Shown one piece after another: positions 2,844-60,533 of a DNA stretch of 64,000 nucleotides (the first letter of the stretch is position 1; every line of letters begins with the position of its first letter). Position numbers and translations under genes: made by a program. Source of the stretch: a virus; the IMG/VR virus record IMGVR_UViG_3300045988_180454, positions 1 to 64,000 of that record, one strand, 5' to 3'. The notes beneath the pieces were generated by a model. It made no database searches and was not told the DNA's origin. It was given only the letters and a program-made list of their open reading frames with translations.

Positions 2844-3503
2844 ATGCTTCCCCCAATCTTATACTGTGGTGCAACCGAAAACCTACAAGACGTTTTAGAT
2901 GATGATTGGATCATAGGTATTTTAAGCCATGACTTCGCACTCATCCTAGTTGATGAGATAGAAGTCATTGAAGAAGAACTCAACACCGACACCAAGTATC
3001 GAGAAGAGTTCCTAAAGGCAAAGAACATGCAGCGCATTCAATCTTTCGGTTCCATCTGTAACATTCCCGCTGGTAAGAATGAAACAATTGAAATCGGAGT
3101 GATCCGGTACGGCAAAGGTTCTTGGGGACTTCAAGCCTACTTTATTATCCCAGAAGAAGATATTGTAGATGAGAGCCTAGAGTTTAGTCCGACCGAAGAA
3201 GAATGGGAAGACTTGTTTAAAAGCTTTCCCATTGATGCTAAGTATTCCAAGCCTAAGGTAAAAGAAAAAGTCTTTGAAGCAGTACAAGTCATCAATGCCG
3301 AAGATAAAAAGCGATTTGTTGAGCAATTCAATCGAACACTTCCTCGCTACCTAGTAGATTGGGAGCACCCAAATGTTTTTCATGACGAAAATTACCTGAT
3401 GAGAGTAGCATTCAGGAAGACCAATGATAACCGCTGGAGCATCAGCCCTCGTTTCATTATCGCTTTGGAGCGGGTATTACAAGACATAGAGGAAGAAAAA
3501 TAA
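2844..3503 (+). CDS. hypothetical protein (219 aa)
   Basis: ORF 2781..3503 trimmed to ATG 2844 because the upstream part overlaps the repeat set. Acidic protein with no motif recognised. Confidence 0.6.
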   Translation: MLPPILYCGATENLQDVLDDDWIIGILSHDFALILVDEIEVIEEELNTDTKYREEFLKAKNMQRIQSFGSICNIPAGKNETIEIGVIRYGKGSWGLQAYFIIPEEDIVDESLEFSPTEEEWEDLFKSFPIDAKYSKPKVKEKVFEAVQVINAEDKKRFVEQFNRTLPRYLVDWEHPNVFHDENYLMRVAFRKTNDNRWSISPRFIIALERVLQDIEEEK

Positions 3504-3925
3504 TGAGTGATGAAGTAAATAAACACAACAATGAATCATACCTGGAGCTAAAACAGAACTTGAAGGATCTGAAAAGCCTACTGAAAGATGCTTGGCGCCA
3601 CATCAAGAAAGAAGATCTTTCCGAAGAGTATTCACATCTTATCTTTGAGGTCACACCTGGGTATCTTGGGACCATAGCCAAGATGTTTAACGTTCCCGAG
3701 GAACATAAAGATAAGTTCGTTAATCTCTCCATTGTGGTGCCGAAGAGCCAAGAGATCACTTCTTTAGGATATATTACAGGTCGGTATAGCAAGGAAGAGT
3801 TAGACTTTACCCCGTCCGAATTACACACCGAGCTGCGGAATATCCATGAAGCGGGTGCCTTGAAGCTTATTCGACGGGTAGATTTAGGGACCAACTTTGA
3901 CCCTAAGACAGGTGAGATGAAGTGA
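3503..3925 (+). CDS. hypothetical protein (140 aa)
   Basis: TAATG stop-start overlap with the upstream gene. Coherent ORF. Confidence 0.7.
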   Translation: MSDEVNKHNNESYLELKQNLKDLKSLLKDAWRHIKKEDLSEEYSHLIFEVTPGYLGTIAKMFNVPEEHKDKFVNLSIVVPKSQEITSLGYITGRYSKEELDFTPSELHTELRNIHEAGALKLIRRVDLGTNFDPKTGEMK

Positions 3926-4416
3926 GTCAGCTTAGCTTTAACTATGATGAACTCGTTTTCATGATTGAGAAAGGACACGTTTCTGACTCACAAATAGAAA
4001 AGATCAAGCGCACCATAGGTGAGAATGTTTTTTACATTAAGAAAGTCAAAGACGAATTATCTTTGATAAACACTTGGTCATACGAAAAATTTGTACCTGA
4101 ACACCAAGAGTTTGCTGAACTAAAACTCAGCAAACTAGGGCTTGGTCTAGGGGAATCAGCAGGGGCAATAGGGAGAGCATCAAAGTATATATATCCCATT
4201 CTTCATCTTACGTTACCCGAAAAAGACAGGTGGTGTTTCAGATTTATGATGCCAGATAGTTTAAGGAAGAAATATATTGAAAGGGGATACCAGTTCTCTG
4301 AATTTGTTTTAAATAGGGAAGCTCAAATAAAGTTCAACTTCTGGAGTAATCCTTGGGGCGATGATCCTAGTGGATTGGAGGCATACTATGCATGGAAAAG
4401 GCATAACCACTTTTAA
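3922..4416 (+). CDS. hypothetical protein (164 aa)
   Basis: GTGA stop-start overlap. Coherent ORF. Confidence 0.7.
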   Translation: MSQLSFNYDELVFMIEKGHVSDSQIEKIKRTIGENVFYIKKVKDELSLINTWSYEKFVPEHQEFAELKLSKLGLGLGESAGAIGRASKYIYPILHLTLPEKDRWCFRFMMPDSLRKKYIERGYQFSEFVLNREAQIKFNFWSNPWGDDPSGLEAYYAWKRHNHF

Positions 4417-12630: not shown

Positions 12631-12660
12631 TTGACAACGATGATCTAGAAACCTTACAAT
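12631..12660 (+). promoter_or_regulatory. strong sigma-70/sigma-A type promoter (TTGACA-18-TACAAT)
   Basis: Perfect -35 TTGACA at 12631-12636, an 18-nt spacer, and -10 TACAAT at 12655-12660. No ORF follows. Confidence 0.6.
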
Positions 12661-12666
12661 GAAATC

Positions 12667-12847
12667 ATCTTCTTAACGAAGAGCCCTGGTAGGTTTACAC
12701 GCTACTATCTCCTTTTCACCTATTTTTGCGTTTGGAGTTCAATTCTCCAACAGGGCACGGGTTCAACTCCCCTCGCAGTACAAAATGGCGTTTCTGTGTA
12801 TGTGAACTGAGGTTCAACAAACCCCCGGTAACCCCGGGGGTTTTGTG
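12667..12847 (+). ncRNA. candidate ~180-nt non-coding RNA with a tRNA-like acceptor/T-arm module
   Basis: Bounded by the promoter above and the terminator at 12822-12847, with no ORF over 7 codons. GCCCTG (12683-12688) pairs with CAGGGC (12751-12756). This stem encloses a GTAG-N9-CTAC hairpin and a perfect T-arm-like hairpin TTGGAG-TTCAATT-CTCCAA (12732-12750). A second GGG-TTCAACT-CCC element follows. Confidence 0.45.
12822..12847 (+). terminator. rho-independent terminator
   Basis: CCCCCGG-TAACC-CCGGGGG followed by TTTTGTG. Confidence 0.8.
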
Positions 12848-12861
12848 TTACCATAATCACT

Positions 12862-15253: not shown

Positions 15254-15281
15254 TTGTCTAGCCCCCTAGGGTTTGTATAAT
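15254..15281 (+). promoter_or_regulatory. candidate promoter (TTGTCT-16-TATAAT) between nrdE and the inserted ORF
   Basis: -35 at 15254-15259 and -10 at 15276-15281. Followed by GGGGG and the leader CATACATACACACAGAAAGGAAG. Confidence 0.45.
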
Positions 15282-15314
15282 GGGGGCATACATACACACA
15301 GAAAGGAAGAGGAG

Positions 15315-15896
15315 TTGTACCGTTCAAAACAACGGGTTCACTGCGAGTTTCGAGATGATTTCTTTGATAAACTCGATGAAATCCTTAATACATCAAATCA
15401 AAAACTAACAGTACCTCAAAAAGCAAAGCTCATCGCTGCACCTGGTTTTTCTGTTGCCACAGCTAAGGATCAGCTTTACTATCGGGGGAAGAAGAGTCCA
15501 TCAACTCAAAGGGTAGTATCACTCATGAATGTCACCCAGATGGACTTTGAAGAGGTAGTTTCTTACGTTTATATGGGTAACCCTCGCGTTCAGGCAAATG
15601 AGTCAAATGAGCCTAAGTTAGTGCCTCCATATGCCCCCGGCGGAAAATACTGTGCTTTCCGTCCCTGGGTGTTCCCGTATCTCCGCCGAAACCTACACTA
15701 TGCTAACTGGGAGGTTTTCACCAAGATTGTTGGTTTTGATTACAACACAGTAAACGTGCCCTCCCAGCGGGTGCCTATTCTTGAATCGGTGATTTACATT
15801 CTTGAGTTACTAAAGAAGATTGGAATGAAGAGCGTTAAGTTCCAAGACATCATCGTTATGGAACCAGATGTATTGCCTGAGGCAAAGGCAAGCTAG
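15315..15896 (+). CDS. hypothetical protein inserted between nrdE and nrdF (193 aa)
   Basis: ORF 15273..15896 trimmed to TTG 15315, directly behind GAAAGGAAGAGGAG. No nuclease motif (HNH, GIY-YIG, LAGLIDADG) recognised. Confidence 0.55.
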   Translation: MYRSKQRVHCEFRDDFFDKLDEILNTSNQKLTVPQKAKLIAAPGFSVATAKDQLYYRGKKSPSTQRVVSLMNVTQMDFEEVVSYVYMGNPRVQANESNEPKLVPPYAPGGKYCAFRPWVFPYLRRNLHYANWEVFTKIVGFDYNTVNVPSQRVPILESVIYILELLKKIGMKSVKFQDIIVMEPDVLPEAKAS

Positions 15897-15909: not shown

Positions 15910-16875
15910 ATGGCTTTTACAGCCGTTGATTGGAATAATCTCAAAGATCCACTTGATCTTGACGTATGGAATCGGATGACTGGTAATTTCTGGTTGCCAG
16001 AGAAGATTCCGCTTAGCAATGACCTGCCTTCGTGGAGTACGGTTCCTCGGGAGGAACAGCTTGCGCTAGAGCGTGCTTTCGCGGGGCTCACGGTGCTAGA
16101 TACGATCCAAAGCGAGGTCGGTGCTCACGCTGTCGGCACCTACGCACACAGCCACCATGAAGAAGCTTGTATGGCGTTTATTGGTGGTATGGAAGCTATT
16201 CACGCTCGGTCTTATAGCTCAATCTTTACGACGCTCAACAGCACTGAGCAGATCGAAGCGGCTTTTGATTTTGCGCACACTAACGCAAATCTTCAAGCGC
16301 AAGCCCGGCTTATCGTTGAGTATTACAAATCCCATGCGGGGGACCTGGAAAGTCGAGAATTTTTCTGCCGAACCGCAAGCGTATTCCTAGAAAGTTTCCT
16401 GTTCTACTCGGGTTTTTATCCAGCCTTGCGGCTTTGTGCAGAGGGGAAGTGTACAAATACCGCAGACATTATCCGGCTTATTATGCGTGACGAGGGCATT
16501 CACGGATACTACATTGGCCTGAAAGCGAAAGCCCTTTTTGACACCCTGCCTCAAGATCGAAAAGAACTTCTCGCAGGACGTGCGTTGTTGTTGGTTCGTA
16601 AACTCTATGAACTTCAAGTAGATTACGTACATGATTTGTATGCTGATACCACATGGGAAGAAGACGCTCTAAAGTATTCCGCGTACAATGCCAACAAAGC
16701 CTTAACCAATCTTGGTCTTCCTGTCGAGTTTAAGCCTGAAGAGGTAGATGTGTCGCCTGCTATCTTGGCGCAGATGACGCTGGAAACCAATGAAACTCAT
16801 GACTTTTTCTCTGGGTCTGGGTCTTCGTATATCCTTGCAAAAACAGAAGAATTGAGTGATGATGACTGGAATTGA
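15910..16875 (+). CDS. nrdF: class Ib ribonucleotide reductase beta subunit
   Basis: ORF trimmed to ATG 15910 behind GAAAGGAAG. Di-iron ligand motifs GGMEAIHARSY and MRDEGIHG, plus FYSGFY. Confidence 0.93.
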   Translation: MAFTAVDWNNLKDPLDLDVWNRMTGNFWLPEKIPLSNDLPSWSTVPREEQLALERAFAGLTVLDTIQSEVGAHAVGTYAHSHHEEACMAFIGGMEAIHARSYSSIFTTLNSTEQIEAAFDFAHTNANLQAQARLIVEYYKSHAGDLESREFFCRTASVFLESFLFYSGFYPALRLCAEGKCTNTADIIRLIMRDEGIHGYYIGLKAKALFDTLPQDRKELLAGRALLLVRKLYELQVDYVHDLYADTTWEEDALKYSAYNANKALTNLGLPVEFKPEEVDVSPAILAQMTLETNETHDFFSGSGSSYILAKTEELSDDDWN

Positions 16876-25534: not shown

Positions 25535-26100
25535 AAAAACCAGGGGAAAAATTCTATCTTTGCAAGAAAGATATCTTTCAACTCTTAGGTGTTCCTCTTA
25601 CCCCGCAGGATCAAAACAATCTCGTCCAGAGAGCACGAAGAAGAAAACCTCCCATACCCACCCATTATTGGTATTCCTCCCATCACCGAATGAGCTTGGA
25701 AGAATCCCTCGCTTTTCTTGAGAGAATCAAGGGATATCCTAAATTTCAAAACCTAGACTTTGGTTGGCAAAAAGAGCTGATAATCAACGCCTGTTGTGAT
25801 TTAAAAGACACCTATCCGCTCAACGCTTTGTTGATTTATCTTGGTTTGTCTAGCTCATCAGGGATTCCTGGAAGCAAAAGGGATTTTTCTTCCCAGTATG
25901 CTAAAATGCCTTGTATACCTAAAAGCCTGACCCAGCGAATTTACCCCTGGATCAGAAGTACATATCTCGTAGATAAGGCTGTAGCAGATGAGATCAGCCT
26001 CCGGAAAGACAAAGGTGAAGAGCTTCACATGATAATTGCTAGTCTTGAGACTCCGCTTATGCTAAACTTGAGCTCAAGAAAAGGAGATATCAATGCTTAA
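25444..26100 (+). CDS. hypothetical protein (start uncertain)
   Basis: GTG 25444 overlaps the upstream gene by 91 nt. There is no ATG until well inside the ORF. A basic patch RARRRKPPIP is present. Confidence 0.5.
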   Translation: MGIPRTQSFTATQFRCFAPYRLSGPLIDGVEKPGEKFYLCKKDIFQLLGVPLTPQDQNNLVQRARRRKPPIPTHYWYSSHHRMSLEESLAFLERIKGYPKFQNLDFGWQKELIINACCDLKDTYPLNALLIYLGLSSSSGIPGSKRDFSSQYAKMPCIPKSLTQRIYPWIRSTYLVDKAVADEISLRKDKGEELHMIIASLETPLMLNLSSRKGDINA

Positions 26101-55582: not shown

Positions 55583-56875
55583 TTATTCAGCTAAGCGTTC
55601 AACGGATTCAACCCATTGATTTACCAGGTCTTTGAAATCGGGTGGGACAAAGCCCTCGCCTTTTACAAACTTCCCTGTTTCTGGGTCGGTTTTCCCACCT
55701 TTGAACTTGGTGCGGTTTGATTCGCAAACCCGTTCGAGTGCTGCTGAAAGATCGTAACCGGTATGGGTTTTCACCGCCAAGCCTAAAAGAGTGAAAAGAA
55801 CGTCGCCGAAGGCGTCGTAAAGATCGGTGAGCACTTTTTCTCGGTATTCTTGATCCAACGCAAACTTGGGCTTCGCCATGAGGTTTACCGCTGATTTGAG
55901 TTCGTCTACTTCTTCGAGGAAGAAGTTCAGTGCTGGACGAAGCAGTGCTTCCCGGTCGCCTTCTGCATTCAACAGGATTTTCATATGGTCTGAAATGCTT
56001 GGCGGGATTTGTCCAACCTGCATGTTCCAGTTGCTTACTTCGTTGACGAAACCATCAAAAGCCCAGTTTTGTGATTCCTTATAAGTAGTTGGCGCTTTGG
56101 GGTCTGTGCTTAAGCCTGCGTCTTCAAGAACCTTACCAAAAACCGCACGGTCAAGATTGTAAAGTTCTTCGGCAATAAGTGCGATTACTGACCGGAACTC
56201 CGCATCTACACCTGCATCAGAACGCTTCTGAATAATTTCTGACCAGGTTCGGAAGTTACCTGTAACCACAATTGATGTCGCGGTAGCATTTGGCAATACA
56301 CAGCGAGCTGCTTCCGCTGCTTGTTTTTTAGAAGCCTCCGGGTGATAGCGCATTACCATGTCGAAAAGCTTATTGTACAGGTCTACGCTTTCGTTGGCGA
56401 AGCACTCTAGCTTTGCTTCCATTGATGCTTTAGGTGAAAGCGGAGGATAACTACCGCTATGAGTGAGGGGGAGGTCTTGTAAAGCCGGGGGAAGCACCAT
56501 CTCTAACCCCTTATCTGGGGAAACAAAACGCTGAGACAGTACGCTAAACGACAAGTGGCGGTGGCGCGTAAGCTCTGCCAAGAATGACCGGCTTACACTT
56601 TCAAGAAGGAATGTTGCCGAAGCGTGTTCCATGATGGAGTAGTGGTGTTTTTCATGGATCGTCTTCTCTACGTACTTAGTCGGCGTGTTGGTTTCCTCAT
56701 TTGGACGATCCCAAGACTGGTAGCAGTTCCGTCCCGCAAACTCAATAAGACGGGTTGAATCTGGATCACCTGGTTCATGAGGAAGCACGTGTCCAAAATC
56801 GTAGTTGAACTCTGGATTTAGCCGGGTGAAGGCAAGTAATGTTACTTGCGGAGTCTGAGAGATTCGCACATTCAT
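55583..56875 (-). CDS. thyX: ThyX (flavin-dependent thymidylate synthase) fused to a MazG-like NTP pyrophosphohydrolase domain
   Basis: ThyX signature RHRHLSFSVLSQRF in the N-terminal ~260 aa. The C-terminal ~140 aa carries FFLEEVDELKSAV...LYDAFGDVLFTLLGLAV, a MazG-type EExxE/D helix pair. Confidence 0.8.
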   Translation of the reverse strand: MNVRISQTPQVTLLAFTRLNPEFNYDFGHVLPHEPGDPDSTRLIEFAGRNCYQSWDRPNEETNTPTKYVEKTIHEKHHYSIMEHASATFLLESVSRSFLAELTRHRHLSFSVLSQRFVSPDKGLEMVLPPALQDLPLTHSGSYPPLSPKASMEAKLECFANESVDLYNKLFDMVMRYHPEASKKQAAEAARCVLPNATATSIVVTGNFRTWSEIIQKRSDAGVDAEFRSVIALIAEELYNLDRAVFGKVLEDAGLSTDPKAPTTYKESQNWAFDGFVNEVSNWNMQVGQIPPSISDHMKILLNAEGDREALLRPALNFFLEEVDELKSAVNLMAKPKFALDQEYREKVLTDLYDAFGDVLFTLLGLAVKTHTGYDLSAALERVCESNRTKFKGGKTDPETGKFVKGEGFVPPDFKDLVNQWVESVERLAE

Positions 56876-59894: not shown

Positions 59895-60533
59895 CTATGC
59901 AGACTGCTTTGATTCTAGCATAGTGAGGAATTTTTCGGTGCGGTCACTGATGGTTGTTGCCATGTCCTCAACTTCGGCTTCTGAAGCACAAATGTCCACG
60001 TTGGCTACGTGAGTAATATCTGTGTAGCCTTGTGCCTCCAAAATCTTTTGAGTGTCTTTCACGGCTGCGCAAAAATCCCGACCAAACGTAAGGTTCCCGA
60101 CACCAATAATGAATTGGGGGGTGTCCCGCAAAATAAGTTTTTCTGCTTGCAAAAATTCTTTGAGTGGTTGGGGGATCATGTCGTCTTTCACCCGCCTTCC
60201 GATCGCTGGGTCGTCAACGAACCGTCCGTAGCTGGGAACCAACCACACCACAGAGGAATACATACGCTTTCCGCGGAACTGAGCTGCATCCATGTCGAGG
60301 GATGCGTATTGCTGTACAATTTCAAGCTTGATTCGATCCACCGCCTTGAGGTGTCCCCTTACGCCTTCTTTAAGGGCATTCGTGAGACAAATTCCTTCAA
60401 ACTTAGGAGCAGCCTTAGGGTTCCTTAGCCATAAAGTTTCCTTTAGCTTATCAAAGACTTTTTGAGTGTTACCGGAAAGACTGTAGGCAACAAGAAGATG
60501 GTTCATCCAAGGTTCAGGTTGGTTATTCGGCAT
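59895..60533 (-). CDS. nrdI: NrdI-like flavodoxin with an insertion
   Basis: LLVAYSLSGNTQKV, WLVPSYG and IIGVGNLTFGRDFCAA match NrdI landmarks (VYFSSxSxNT, IVPSYGGG, SGNRNFG). At 212 aa it is longer than the usual ~135 aa. Confidence 0.7.
   Translation of the reverse strand: MPNNQPEPWMNHLLVAYSLSGNTQKVFDKLKETLWLRNPKAAPKFEGICLTNALKEGVRGHLKAVDRIKLEIVQQYASLDMDAAQFRGKRMYSSVVWLVPSYGRFVDDPAIGRRVKDDMIPQPLKEFLQAEKLILRDTPQFIIGVGNLTFGRDFCAAVKDTQKILEAQGYTDITHVANVDICASEAEVEDMATTISDRTEKFLTMLESKQSA

Follow-up and report, generated by a model that had tools for sequence, protein, structure and literature searches.

What does a phage gain from a gene that holds the upper half of a tRNA and no anticodon to read with? 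This question is raised by positions 12631-12849 (plus strand) of IMG/VR virus record IMGVR_UViG_3300045988_180454, of which we analysed positions 1 to 64,000, referred to here as the window and making up most of a phage genome of ~65 kb. The segment is a non-coding unit of ~185 nt, bounded by a promoter and a terminator. An initial annotation of the window had noticed tRNA-like features in it and offered a decayed tRNA, a tRNA mimic or an attP-like fragment as possible identities. Our structural answer is firm, and we hold it with high confidence: related sequences show a tRNA-like top half that is under selection and whose stems are kept by compensatory changes. As to function, we give somewhat less than an even chance to the reading that the element is a tRNA-scaffolded antisense RNA that would act in trans against the ribosome-binding site (RBS) of the phage primase gene, resembling the C4 RNA of phages P1 and P7 in its action. 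An antisense seed against this site formed no part of the initial annotation, and sequence comparison now makes it the most specifically supported reading. On this reading, the RNA gene would have been built from a tRNA gene by a clade of ~65-kb oral siphoviruses.

The initial annotation had named conservation in relatives as a test, and such conservation was found. Searches by flanking proteins, DNA patterns and cluster members led to more than 40 related contigs that carry the element (individual loci carry the prefix L, and groups of variants are called V1 to V5). These provided 16 distinct full-length versions and ten distinct tRNA-like cores, with no disrupted version among those read, in phages that differ by 13-18% overall. 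The position of the element is constant, between an open reading frame (ORF) of 63 or 65 aa and one of 78 aa.

The signals that delimit the unit are the following.

12631-12636, plus strand: -35 hexamer TTGACA, identical in 16 of 16 distinct versions of the element
12655-12660, plus strand: -10 hexamer TACAAT, replaced by TAGAAT in V3 and V4 and otherwise invariant
12819-12849, plus strand: intrinsic terminator, a G+C-rich stem (AAACCCCCGG / CCGGGGGUUU) followed by UUUUGUGUU
about 12819-12843, plus strand: the terminator stem, followed by the tail TTTTGTGTT

The promoter (12631-12660) is indeed near-consensus, matching 11 of 12 consensus positions with a spacer of 18 nt, and it is the top promoter-like site within 10-16 kb. 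Across the versions the spacer measures 17-18 nt and comes in at least four unrelated sequences; compared with the window, the hexamers retain 83-100% identity (-35: 100%) and the spacer 44-50%. Judged by spacing alone, transcription is predicted to start at ~12666-12667. The strong terminator described initially is likewise present, with a stem that is conserved in relatives, a loop that varies (UAAC, UAUAG, CUAUA) and a closing G-U pair that becomes G-C in L007 and L029. These comparisons support the view that promoter and terminator are conserved in the manner of functional signals, in agreement with the earlier description of the unit as non-coding and equipped with a promoter and a terminator of its own. 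The accompanying statement that the unit holds no ORF needs correction in its literal form, as short ORFs of 34-70 aa overlap it. No reading frame is conserved, because the indels among relatives (1, 2, 4, 14, 22 and 24 nt) include lengths that are not multiples of three; these frame-breaking differences led us to reject the unit as a coding sequence.

Within the unit, the 75-nt segment 12683-12757 (75-81 nt in relatives) forms the tRNA-like top half, preceded by a small leader hairpin.

12668-12682, plus strand: 5' leader hairpin UCUUC-UUAAC-GAAGA, adjoining the acceptor-like stem; putative RNase P leader
12683-12688, plus strand: 5' strand GCCCUG of the acceptor-like stem, pairing with CAGGGC at 12751-12756
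12732-12750, plus strand: T-arm with a 6-bp stem UUGGAG/CUCCAA and loop UUCAAUU, following the U54 U55 C56 R57 A58 consensus with G53-C61 as closing pair
12733-12737, 12738-12744 and 12745-12749, plus strand: the T-arm as first noted (TGGAG, TTCAATT and CTCCA)
12751-12757, plus strand: 3' strand CAGGGC and a discriminator-like A; CGG comes next, so that no CCA is encoded

The acceptor-like pairing of GCCCTG with CAGGGC and the T at the position-8 equivalent (12690) are as initially described. The stem is paired in 100% of the cells of ten distinct sequences and is supported by covariation, its sixth pair changing from G-C to A-U in L078. The T-arm, also correctly recognised as canonical, abuts the acceptor 3' strand exactly as in tRNA, and its loop reads UUCRAUU in all ten distinct cores. 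Its outermost stem pair occurs as three Watson-Crick types, namely U-A (V1, V3, V4), A-U (V2) and C-G (V5), and the third pair counted from the outer end is G-C or A-U. Acceptor and T stems are split into 6 + 6 bp, not 7 + 5, with the tRNA acceptor-branch total of 12 bp retained. The leader hairpin combines an invariant stem with a 5-nt loop of four sequences (UUAAC, UUUCA, AUAAA, CUUCA), and two versions carry two additional A residues between this hairpin and G1.

In the model-fitted alignment of the ten distinct cores, 97.2% of the cells hold standard pairs, compared with 40-50% when the partners are slid by 1-3 columns, and double-sided changes occur at four pairs. None of 500 shuffles reached the observed covariation score. 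Furthermore, the 75-nt core folds with z = -3.6 against its own shuffles. We also searched for a composite of two parts, a T-arm with a 5-bp stem, a G-C closing pair and the loop TTCRANN and, after it, a 6-nt strand able to pair with a 6-mer located 25-75 nt upstream; the search returned one site in the 64-kb window, the present one, and a site in one of 200 shuffled windows.

The initial annotation's expectation that this is not a normal tRNA holds for all variants, with ARAGORN and Rfam both negative. More specifically, ARAGORN reported no tRNA or transfer-messenger RNA (tmRNA) gene in the whole window or in 18 related loci, and no Rfam family matched the element at gathering score. At E ≤ 10, two variants produced no tRNA match and only sub-threshold matches driven by the terminator hairpin. 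The element shares with tRNA the 12-bp branch, the T-loop and the G53-C61 closure, and departs from it in having a loop of 25-29 nt on a 4-5-bp stem at the anticodon position and no D-arm in the standard register. It differs from tmRNA in its third pair, C-G and not G3-U70, in the ~60 nt between the halves and in the lack of a conserved frame. The family models of C4 and P4 CI gave no match at gathering score or at E ≤ 10. Among GenBank phages, no DNA match to the region was found, and a 111-nt query at E ≤ 10 retrieved 19-28-nt matches only, several of them in the T-arms of unrelated phage tRNAs. The 12-bp stack, T-loop and leader hairpin make 5' maturation by RNase P structurally plausible.

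YrlA RNAs and mRNA leaders were considered in the same way. No Rfam match to YrlA was obtained, the ORFs scanned (the large ORFs, not every ORF) contained no TROVE domain, and the neighbours of the element are small membrane-type ORFs and nrdE, with no rsr gene among them. The Ro-binding motif GNCGAAN0-1G is absent and no version of it is conserved, the leader having AACGAAG at this place in V1 and V3 and UCAGAAG in V2. For riboswitch and attenuator leaders (T-box, amino-acid, B12 and NrdR-linked) there were only sub-threshold Rfam hits, again terminator-driven, and the segment 5' of the terminator varies in length and sequence.

A hint as to where the top half came from lies in the string GAGTTCRATTCTCNNNCAGGGCA. 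Every real tRNA that carries it is a tRNA-Leu (CAA, CAG, TAG or TAA anticodon), from very diverse environmental bacteria (loci L030-L047); since it occurs in tRNA-Leu alone, an origin of the scaffold from tRNA-Leu is suggested, not proven. Such a match, together with a 75-nt length and ends that fit a tRNA, would also suit a decaying tRNA pseudogene, possibly tRNA-Leu-like, which has lost its D and anticodon arms and whose promoter and terminator are leftovers. The narrow distribution of the element speaks for this as well, as does a second fragment, GGGTTCAACTCCCCTCGCA, which seems to resemble a tRNA 3' end. A functionless relic, one of the identities first proposed, is nevertheless improbable in our view. 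Phages 13-18% apart keep all helices by compensatory changes, so that covariation maintains the structure; the promoter hexamers are kept over randomised spacers and a 17-nt loop core amid divergence, and none of the ten distinct cores from more than 40 contigs is disrupted.

The same T-arm and acceptor 3' strand look like the piece of tRNA gene that is copied when a phage integrates, and an attP-like fragment was among the identities first proposed. This origin has next to nothing left in its favour. The acceptor stem is present with both of its strands, the ORFs scanned yielded no integrase domain, and the stems differ between phage variants by compensatory change, unlike a core that copies a host tRNA. 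When 185,579 species genomes were scanned for the 23-nt T-arm/acceptor string, the matches were tRNA-Leu genes of unrelated environmental bacteria and metagenome-assembled genomes (MAGs) and one copy of the phage itself, with no plausible host among them; the string consisted of the T-arm and acceptor 3' strand, and the second T-arm-like fragment GGGTTCAACYCCCCTCGCA lay outside the scan.

The part of the element that replaces the anticodon arm consists of a junction, a short helix (P3) and a large loop.

12689-12698, plus strand: junction or linker with invariant UAGGUU, 7-10 nt long across versions
12689-12692 and 12702-12705, plus strand: D-arm-like hairpin of GTAG, N9 and CTAC
12699-12702, plus strand: 5' strand ACGC of helix P3, at the anticodon-stem position
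12728-12731, plus strand: 3' strand GCGU of helix P3, pairing with ACGC in the minimum-energy folds of V1, V3 and V4
12703-12727, plus strand: C/U-rich loop of 25 nt (25-29 nt in relatives) with the core ACUAUCUCC(C)UUUUCACC
12706-12731, plus strand: the pyrimidine-rich stretch of the initial annotation

Single-sequence folds of V1, V3 and V4 give a three-way junction in which a P3 of 4-6 bp encloses the loop and abuts the T stem. The lineages spell this helix differently: ACGC/GCGU, ACGUC/GACGU (V2, V5), GACGU/GCGUC (V3) and GACGC/GCGUU (V4), with a coordinated insertion in V2 and V5 of U on one strand and A on the other. Because the alignments, the model-fitted one included, misplace the P3 strands in three of ten sequences, the support for P3 consists of the single-sequence folds and a hand-made table, by which the helix is predicted and kept in all variants. 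The GTAG-N9-CTAC hairpin seen initially is present too, and RNAalifold favours it over P3. In an alternative register, GUAG (12689-12692) pairs with CUAU (12705-12708) in ten of ten sequences, with G-U replaced by A-U in V3 and V4. As the GUAG hairpin and P3 cannot nest together, they would be alternatives or form a pseudoknot. The claim that the element lacks an anticodon arm and has an unpaired stretch in its place therefore stands in one respect, as there is no decoding loop and the 25-29-nt loop is rich in C and U, and falls short in another, as a short conserved helix occupies this place.

The 17-nt loop core, ACUAUCUCCUUUUCACC, is identical in V1, V3 and V4 and carries one additional C (CUCCC) in V2 and V5, and the flanking loop bases vary. 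A conserved, C/U-rich loop that contains CUCC has, by its sequence, the appearance of an antisense seed directed at a Shine-Dalgarno (SD) sequence. A matching site lies downstream on the same strand.

12706-12717, plus strand: proposed antisense seed UAUCUCCUUUUC, a 12-nt perfect complement of 26078-26089
26078-26089, plus strand: candidate target GAAAAGGAGAUA, the SD region of the primase (Prim-Pol/D5) gene, whose ATG is at 26093

The 12 nt are the longest complement of the loop in the 64-kb window on both strands, and the site spans -15 to -4 from the primase ATG. The element thus has, as C4 does, a loop complementary to a phage mRNA at an RBS, here the 12 nt at the primase SD. When the 17-nt core was ranked by duplex energy, the primase site came second of 30,619 sense-strand windows (-17.5 kcal/mol) and first among start-codon sites. 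Ranking with the whole 31-nt loop is uninformative, since G-rich sites on the non-coding strand dominate; the core and the sense strands are needed. For the entire transcript, the top complementary runs among 171 SD-preceded start codons are 15, 12 and then 9 nt. In 300 transcript shuffles the best run reached at least 12 nt 12 times and at least 15 nt never, and in none did the second-best run reach 12 nt. The primase leader and target region have no significant structure of their own, for which reason an internal anti-SD hairpin that the RNA might mimic was rejected.

The relatives allow loop and target to be compared. For V3, RNA and primase RBS were read on one contig via two overlapping loci; 20 further genomes hold RNA and target in a single locus, and five more C-type primase loci were read alone. 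The comparison covers the variants other than V4, whose only contigs end before the primase gene. Phages with the loop CUCCUUUU (V1, V3) share the target core AAAAGGAG: the target is GAAAAGGAGAUA in V1 and GAAAAGGAGAUG in V3, where the last pair is G-U. Phages with the loop CUCCCUUUU, the C-type, have the target GAAAGGGAGAUA in 19 of 20 same-locus genomes and in 24 of 25 C-type primase loci overall. Accordingly, the target AAAGGGAG accompanies the loop CUCCCUUUU, an A-U to G-C exchange at a paired position. With A changed to G in the target opposite U changed to C in the RNA, the C-type phages have 11 Watson-Crick pairs and one G-U. By its sequence pattern, this is a genuine compensatory exchange between RNA and target. 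In addition, L090 has a V1-like promoter spacer in front of a body and a target that are both C-type, a mosaic that implies recombination inside the locus without breaking the RNA-target match.

Several observations weigh against an antisense RNA aimed at the primase. The covariation of RNA and target is a single event that splits two clades, with a chance probability that we estimate at ~0.03-0.05, and L082, the sole exception among the C-type loci, has the target GAAAGGAAGAUA with an uncompensated G to A change. CUCC is anti-SD-like, so that some complementarity to a strong SD is expected, which leaves the AUA and AAAA extensions as the specific part. By energy, one site inside the tape-measure gene beats the primase site. 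If the GUAG/CUAU hairpin forms, the first three to four seed bases are sequestered. The start/stop overlap ATGCTTAA could lessen SD dependence through translational coupling, and as the 17-nt core exceeds the 12-nt pairing, another partner, possibly of the host, may be the real or an additional target. The terminator lies only 13 nt from the next gene, so that a cis-acting leader fits too. Finally, both the transcript and its processing are predictions from the sequence.

Two of these sites deserve a closer description. The primase RBS of L082 (~16045-16075) reads GAAAGGAAGATA, with a weaker SD and weaker pairing with its own RNA, and the change may be a real polymorphism or an assembly error. 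The ORF that ends inside the primase start (the ATGCTTAA overlap) encodes 136 aa (window 25690-26100) and is called in only some related contigs; owing to this overlap, the SD proposed as target is part of the region that codes for it.

The conserved top half also lends itself to a different explanation, in which the RNA is a tRNA mimic, serving as decoy, sponge or substrate. A CCA-matured acceptor/T minihelix would titrate or divert a factor that reads the top half of tRNA, with the loop being secondary; candidate partners are a MenT/AbiEii-type acceptor-modifying toxin, a tRNA nuclease, EF-Tu or a synthetase. Indeed, the best-conserved structural module is the part that such enzymes read (12-bp stack, T-loop and discriminator A). 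The real tRNAs that share T-arm and 3' acceptor strand are all tRNA-Leu, whose identity is independent of the anticodon. Nucleotidyltransferase toxins that act on tRNA acceptor stems occur in hosts of the inferred order (PMC7450476). Against this stand the 17-nt core, which is the most conserved primary sequence, and its covariation with the primase SD, both left unexplained, as well as the missing encoded CCA and the absence of a linked defence or counter-defence gene. A decoy for anticodon nucleases is impossible without an anticodon loop, which the RNA lacks. The decoy or mimic idea, already part of the initial annotation and still without positive support, is possible and in our judgement unlikely.

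We assign a similarly low probability to a cis-acting leader of the nrd/replication operon (78-aa ORF, nrdE, nrdF and onward), which would act as an attenuator or as a processing or stability element; the tRNA-like fold would mark an RNase P cut that sets the mRNA 5' end. The end of the terminator is 13 nt 5' of the ATG (12862) of the 78-aa ORF, with nrdE next, and there is no other promoter between the terminator and this start codon. The terminator-to-ATG stretch is 86-95% identical in all variants, and the genes from ~2.2 to 28.7 kb are all co-oriented, as a leader would lead one to expect. What such a leader leaves unexplained is the complementarity in trans. There is no conserved antiterminator pairing, the segment before the terminator is the most variable (a repeat in 0-3 copies, a 24-nt duplication), and the Rfam matches to leaders and riboswitches all remain below threshold. 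Moreover, the L024 group and Kimchi1738, which do not have the element, run from the upstream genes straight into nrdE, so that a dedicated leader is unnecessary.

Downstream of the top half lies a 3' domain, part of which recurs near the left end of the window.

12759-12771, plus strand: small hairpin GGG-UUCAACU-CCC, with the stem kept and a loop of 5-7 nt in relatives
12774-12805, plus strand: 3' domain with a CGCAG...CUGUG helix and the conserved UUUCUGUGUAUGUGA (12791-12805)
12807-12820, plus strand: one copy of the 14-nt variable-number repeat CUGAGGUUCAACAA, with the unit CTGAGG(T/C)T(C/T)AACAA
902-916, minus strand: mRNA leader UCACAUACACAGAAA, a second target candidate or shared DNA motif, directly 5' of the SD (GGAAG) of a 102-aa gene with its start at 889

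The GGG-TTCAACT-CCC element had been described as a second T-loop-like structure; it is present, and its 7-nt T-loop is not conserved. The sequence AACAGGGCACGGGTTCAACTCCCC, which carries this hairpin, is tandemly duplicated in V3 (a 24-nt duplication). The 14-nt repeat occurs in no copy (V3, V4 and some V5), one copy (window), two copies (V2) or three copies (L085). These tandem arrangements were compared among the window, L085 (about 2750-2800) and L022 (3620-3670). By these tandem repeats and the V3 duplication, the 3' domain is judged tolerant of slippage.

The 15-mer UUUCUGUGUAUGUGA is identical to the plus strand at 902-916 and is therefore complementary to the minus-strand leader upstream of the SD of the 102-aa gene, which heads the leftward operon running into TerS, TerL and the structural genes. 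The shared segment, TTTCTGTGTATGTGA(TA), comprises 17 identical bases in the V2 and V3 genomes (L095:3890-3906; L100-L108, just 5' of the 102-aa gene). This match is improbable by chance and may reflect an RNA target or a shared protein-binding DNA motif. The pairing shows no covariation, and the RNA polymorphisms in L103 and L107 are uncompensated. Motifs of the form GT(T)TATGTGA recur in the control region at 890-1430 (about 907, 928-941 and 1407-1423), for which reason the 902-916 segment may be a protein-binding DNA motif.

This recurrence is an argument for a regulatory region at the DNA level, in which the repeated GGTTCAAC and TGTGTATGTGA motifs are operators and the RNA fold is incidental. 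Besides the sharing of TTTCTGTGTATGTGA(TA) with 902-916, two copies of GGTTCAAC lie within 60 nt. In the window as a whole GGTTCAAC is not significantly enriched (4 copies against 1.9 expected, with 16 of 100 shuffles reaching 4), and a third copy falls inside the 14-nt tandem repeat (0-3 copies), which several variants lack. Since operators would also leave the compensatory changes in four helices unexplained, we regard this explanation as very unlikely.

Around the 902-916 segment, the stretch at ~890-970 hardly varies between phages that are 13-18% apart elsewhere. It belongs to a non-coding control region of 1.35 kb (890-2240) between divergent operons, with T-rich runs and a cluster of GCTAGC/CCTAGG palindromes at ~1480-1680. 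This region may hold the origin and early promoters.

The genome around the element is that of a siphovirus which, by sequence, is a distant relative of Corynebacterium phages (Zierdtviridae). Its TerL is 58% identical to that of the Corynebacterium vitaeruminis phages Darwin, Zion, C3PO and Kimchi1738, and its NrdE is 51-53% identical to those of the same phages. From ~2.2 to 28.7 kb, the plus strand carries early and replication genes, all on the same strand: a DNA methyltransferase, class Ib nrdE and nrdF, an SNF2 helicase, a PD-(D/E)XK nuclease, an AAA_24 protein, a DnaE-type polymerase and the Prim-Pol/D5 primase. The minus strand encodes lysis and structural functions, with a GH19 + C39 lysin, a 2192-aa tape measure, the major capsid protein, TerL, ThyX and TerS. 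The ThyX gene and an ORF for a weakly NrdI-like flavodoxin (55583-56875, 59895-60533) lie on this strand among the packaging genes, distant from nrdE and nrdF, and a 207-aa ORF between nrdE and nrdF (15273-15896) has no family match.

The host is probably a member of the Mycobacteriales, an oral Corynebacterium, judging by sequence. The named homologues of the lysin come from Nocardia, Prescottella, Gordonia and Dietzia, and the related contigs are from human-associated metagenomes, some records being named "human.oral.metagenome"; in oral cohorts such as PRJEB6997 the phage attains 20-150x coverage. The assignment is uncertain because the G+C content of the phage, 46%, is low for Corynebacterium and because one copy sits in a Streptococcus-labelled MAG. 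This contig, L029 (CALIIB010000034.1; cluster members WP_288930250.1 and WP_288930254.1), was binned as "uncultured Streptococcus sp.". It is probably a mis-binned phage contig, since lysin, TerL and NrdE point to an actinobacterial host of the Mycobacteriales type.

Relatives with the same gene order (L024-L028, NrdE 55% identical) do not have the element, nor does Kimchi1738, and the closest isolated relatives lack the element or a gap 5' of the ribonucleotide reductase gene, a further point against attP. Covariance model R1, built from the cores, detected no further copy in L024-L028, in Kimchi1738 or in the rest of the window. Presence in one clade and absence from relatives with the same gene order mark the element as a clade-specific insertion of the "moron" type. 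L024 itself (about 65.8 kb, NrdE 55% identical) shows three features 5' of its early genes (3290-4330): an AT-rich repeat block (3290-3760), six or seven copies of AAAACGCGCCCACA (~4140-4320) that look like iterons, and a short promoter-to-terminator unit (~3935-4085) containing ACUCCUUUC. This last unit may encode a small RNA of separate origin that carries an anti-SD-like motif.

How would a tRNA-scaffolded antisense RNA of this kind work? Host RNA polymerase would produce a transcript of ~185-215 nt, from the near-consensus promoter to the intrinsic terminator seen in the DNA. Its first 75-81 nt after the leader hairpin would adopt the three-way junction indicated by covariation, with the 6-bp acceptor and 6-bp T stems stacked and a short helix at the anticodon position that presents the single-stranded, pyrimidine-rich loop of 25-29 nt. 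A 12-bp acceptor/T stack with a T-loop is the feature read by RNase P, RNase Z, the CCA-adding enzyme and the enzymes that modify T-loops. As the stack is recognised by these tRNA-maturation enzymes, the tRNA-like module is most likely a scaffold for processing and stabilisation. More specifically, RNase P would remove the leader hairpin by a cut at G12683, an endonuclease would cut the 3' side after A12757, and CCA would then be added. The loop core UAUCUCC(C)UUUUC, complementary to the SD region of the primase-helicase mRNA, would pair with it and block 30S binding, thereby limiting or timing primase synthesis. The scaffold may also lend stability in a host without Hfq. Possibly, although the indications are weak, the 3' domain acts separately on the leader of the leftward structural operon. 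The bolder version of this proposal is a natural tRNA-scaffold riboregulator, in which a seed loop against the primase-helicase RBS has taken the place of the anticodon arm, host tRNA maturation is put to use, and the precursor may release a second, 3' RNA that pairs with the structural-operon leader and so couples replication to late expression; it is conceivable, and in our estimate less likely than not.

Among known systems, we compared the element with phage antisense RNAs, actinobacterial tRNA-like RNAs, unusual tRNAs and tRNA-linked small RNAs. P4 CI regulates the operon to which the P4 alpha primase belongs, and the target primase here belongs to the P4-type primase family according to the source names of cluster members. 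Both C4 and P4 CI are phage-encoded and RNase P-excised, with exposed loops that pair at or beside the RBS of an mRNA (PMC5320573; PMC5499578). The C4 RNA of P1 and P7, the nearest functioning parallel, has ~77 nt, is released by RNase P and uses its b' loop to occlude a ribosome-binding site (PMC5320573). The likeness consists in a small phage RNA with a loop complementary to a phage mRNA at the RBS. C4, CI and phi80 M3, in contrast, are hairpin-like RNase P substrates without a T-loop equivalent (PMC5499578); the present RNA combines a complete 12-bp acceptor/T stack with a canonical T-loop. In addition, C4 derives in cis from the leader of the very operon under its control, in temperate enterobacterial phages, whereas the present RNA is delimited by a promoter and a terminator of its own and is encoded 13 kb away from the site proposed as its target, in a phage in which no integrase was found and whose host is probably an actinobacterium. 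Given the absence of an Rfam match and of a T-loop equivalent in C4 and CI, the resemblance is one of presumed function, not of family membership.

YrlA of M. smegmatis is tRNA-like, cleaved by RNase P and gains CCA in vivo (PMC4201824). YrlA RNAs, found in Actinobacteria and mycobacteriophages, share with the present RNA a non-coding, non-decoding nature and a tRNA-like domain of T-arm and acceptor-like stem. They are encoded within 4 kb of rsr (Ro60/TROVE) and have the motif GNCGAAN0-1G and a D-arm, whereas this RNA has neither an Rfam YrlA match nor a conserved Ro motif or D-arm, and the large ORFs that were examined included no TROVE gene. Acceptor/T splits of 8/4 and 9/3 occur in natural tRNAs (PMC5389517). 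With these and with D-arm-less mitochondrial tRNAs, the element has in common the 12-bp branch (split 6/6 here), the T-loop, G53-C61, the discriminator and its length. It differs in that a 25-29-nt loop replaces the 7-nt anticodon loop, that there is no standard D-arm and that no tRNA finder detects it. The TMERs of the virus MHV68 are tRNA-linked small RNAs, and engineered tRNA scaffolds (PMC3753655) and mascRNA, from RNase P processing of MALAT1 (PMC4919922), are related cases: a functional RNA replaces the anticodon arm of a tRNA-like module or is attached to it, and is processed or stabilised by tRNA enzymes. Those examples are synthetic or eukaryotic, whereas no natural one from bacteria or phages was found in the literature examined.

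In that literature, no riboregulator built on a true tRNA top half was found described for a phage or a bacterium, and a 2025 review of phage-derived small RNAs mentions neither tRNA nor RNase P. We ourselves know of no described phage riboregulator with such a body. To our knowledge, phage regulatory RNAs have been described almost exclusively in enterobacterial phages and a few phages of Firmicutes, and the majority require Hfq. The element is best classed as an antisense small RNA encoded by a phage or, in wider terms, as a tRNA-like non-coding RNA of narrow distribution.

Since both seed and target are short, well-delimited sequences and the phages themselves supply a compensatory pair of alleles, the proposed pairing is directly testable. 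If it is confirmed, tRNA genes of phages would be re-usable as a chassis for antisense regulators, a natural parallel to the "tRNA scaffold" that engineers devised independently, and "failed" tRNA predictions in phage genomes would merit re-examination. It would also mean that phages of the actinobacterial type regulate a replication protein post-transcriptionally.

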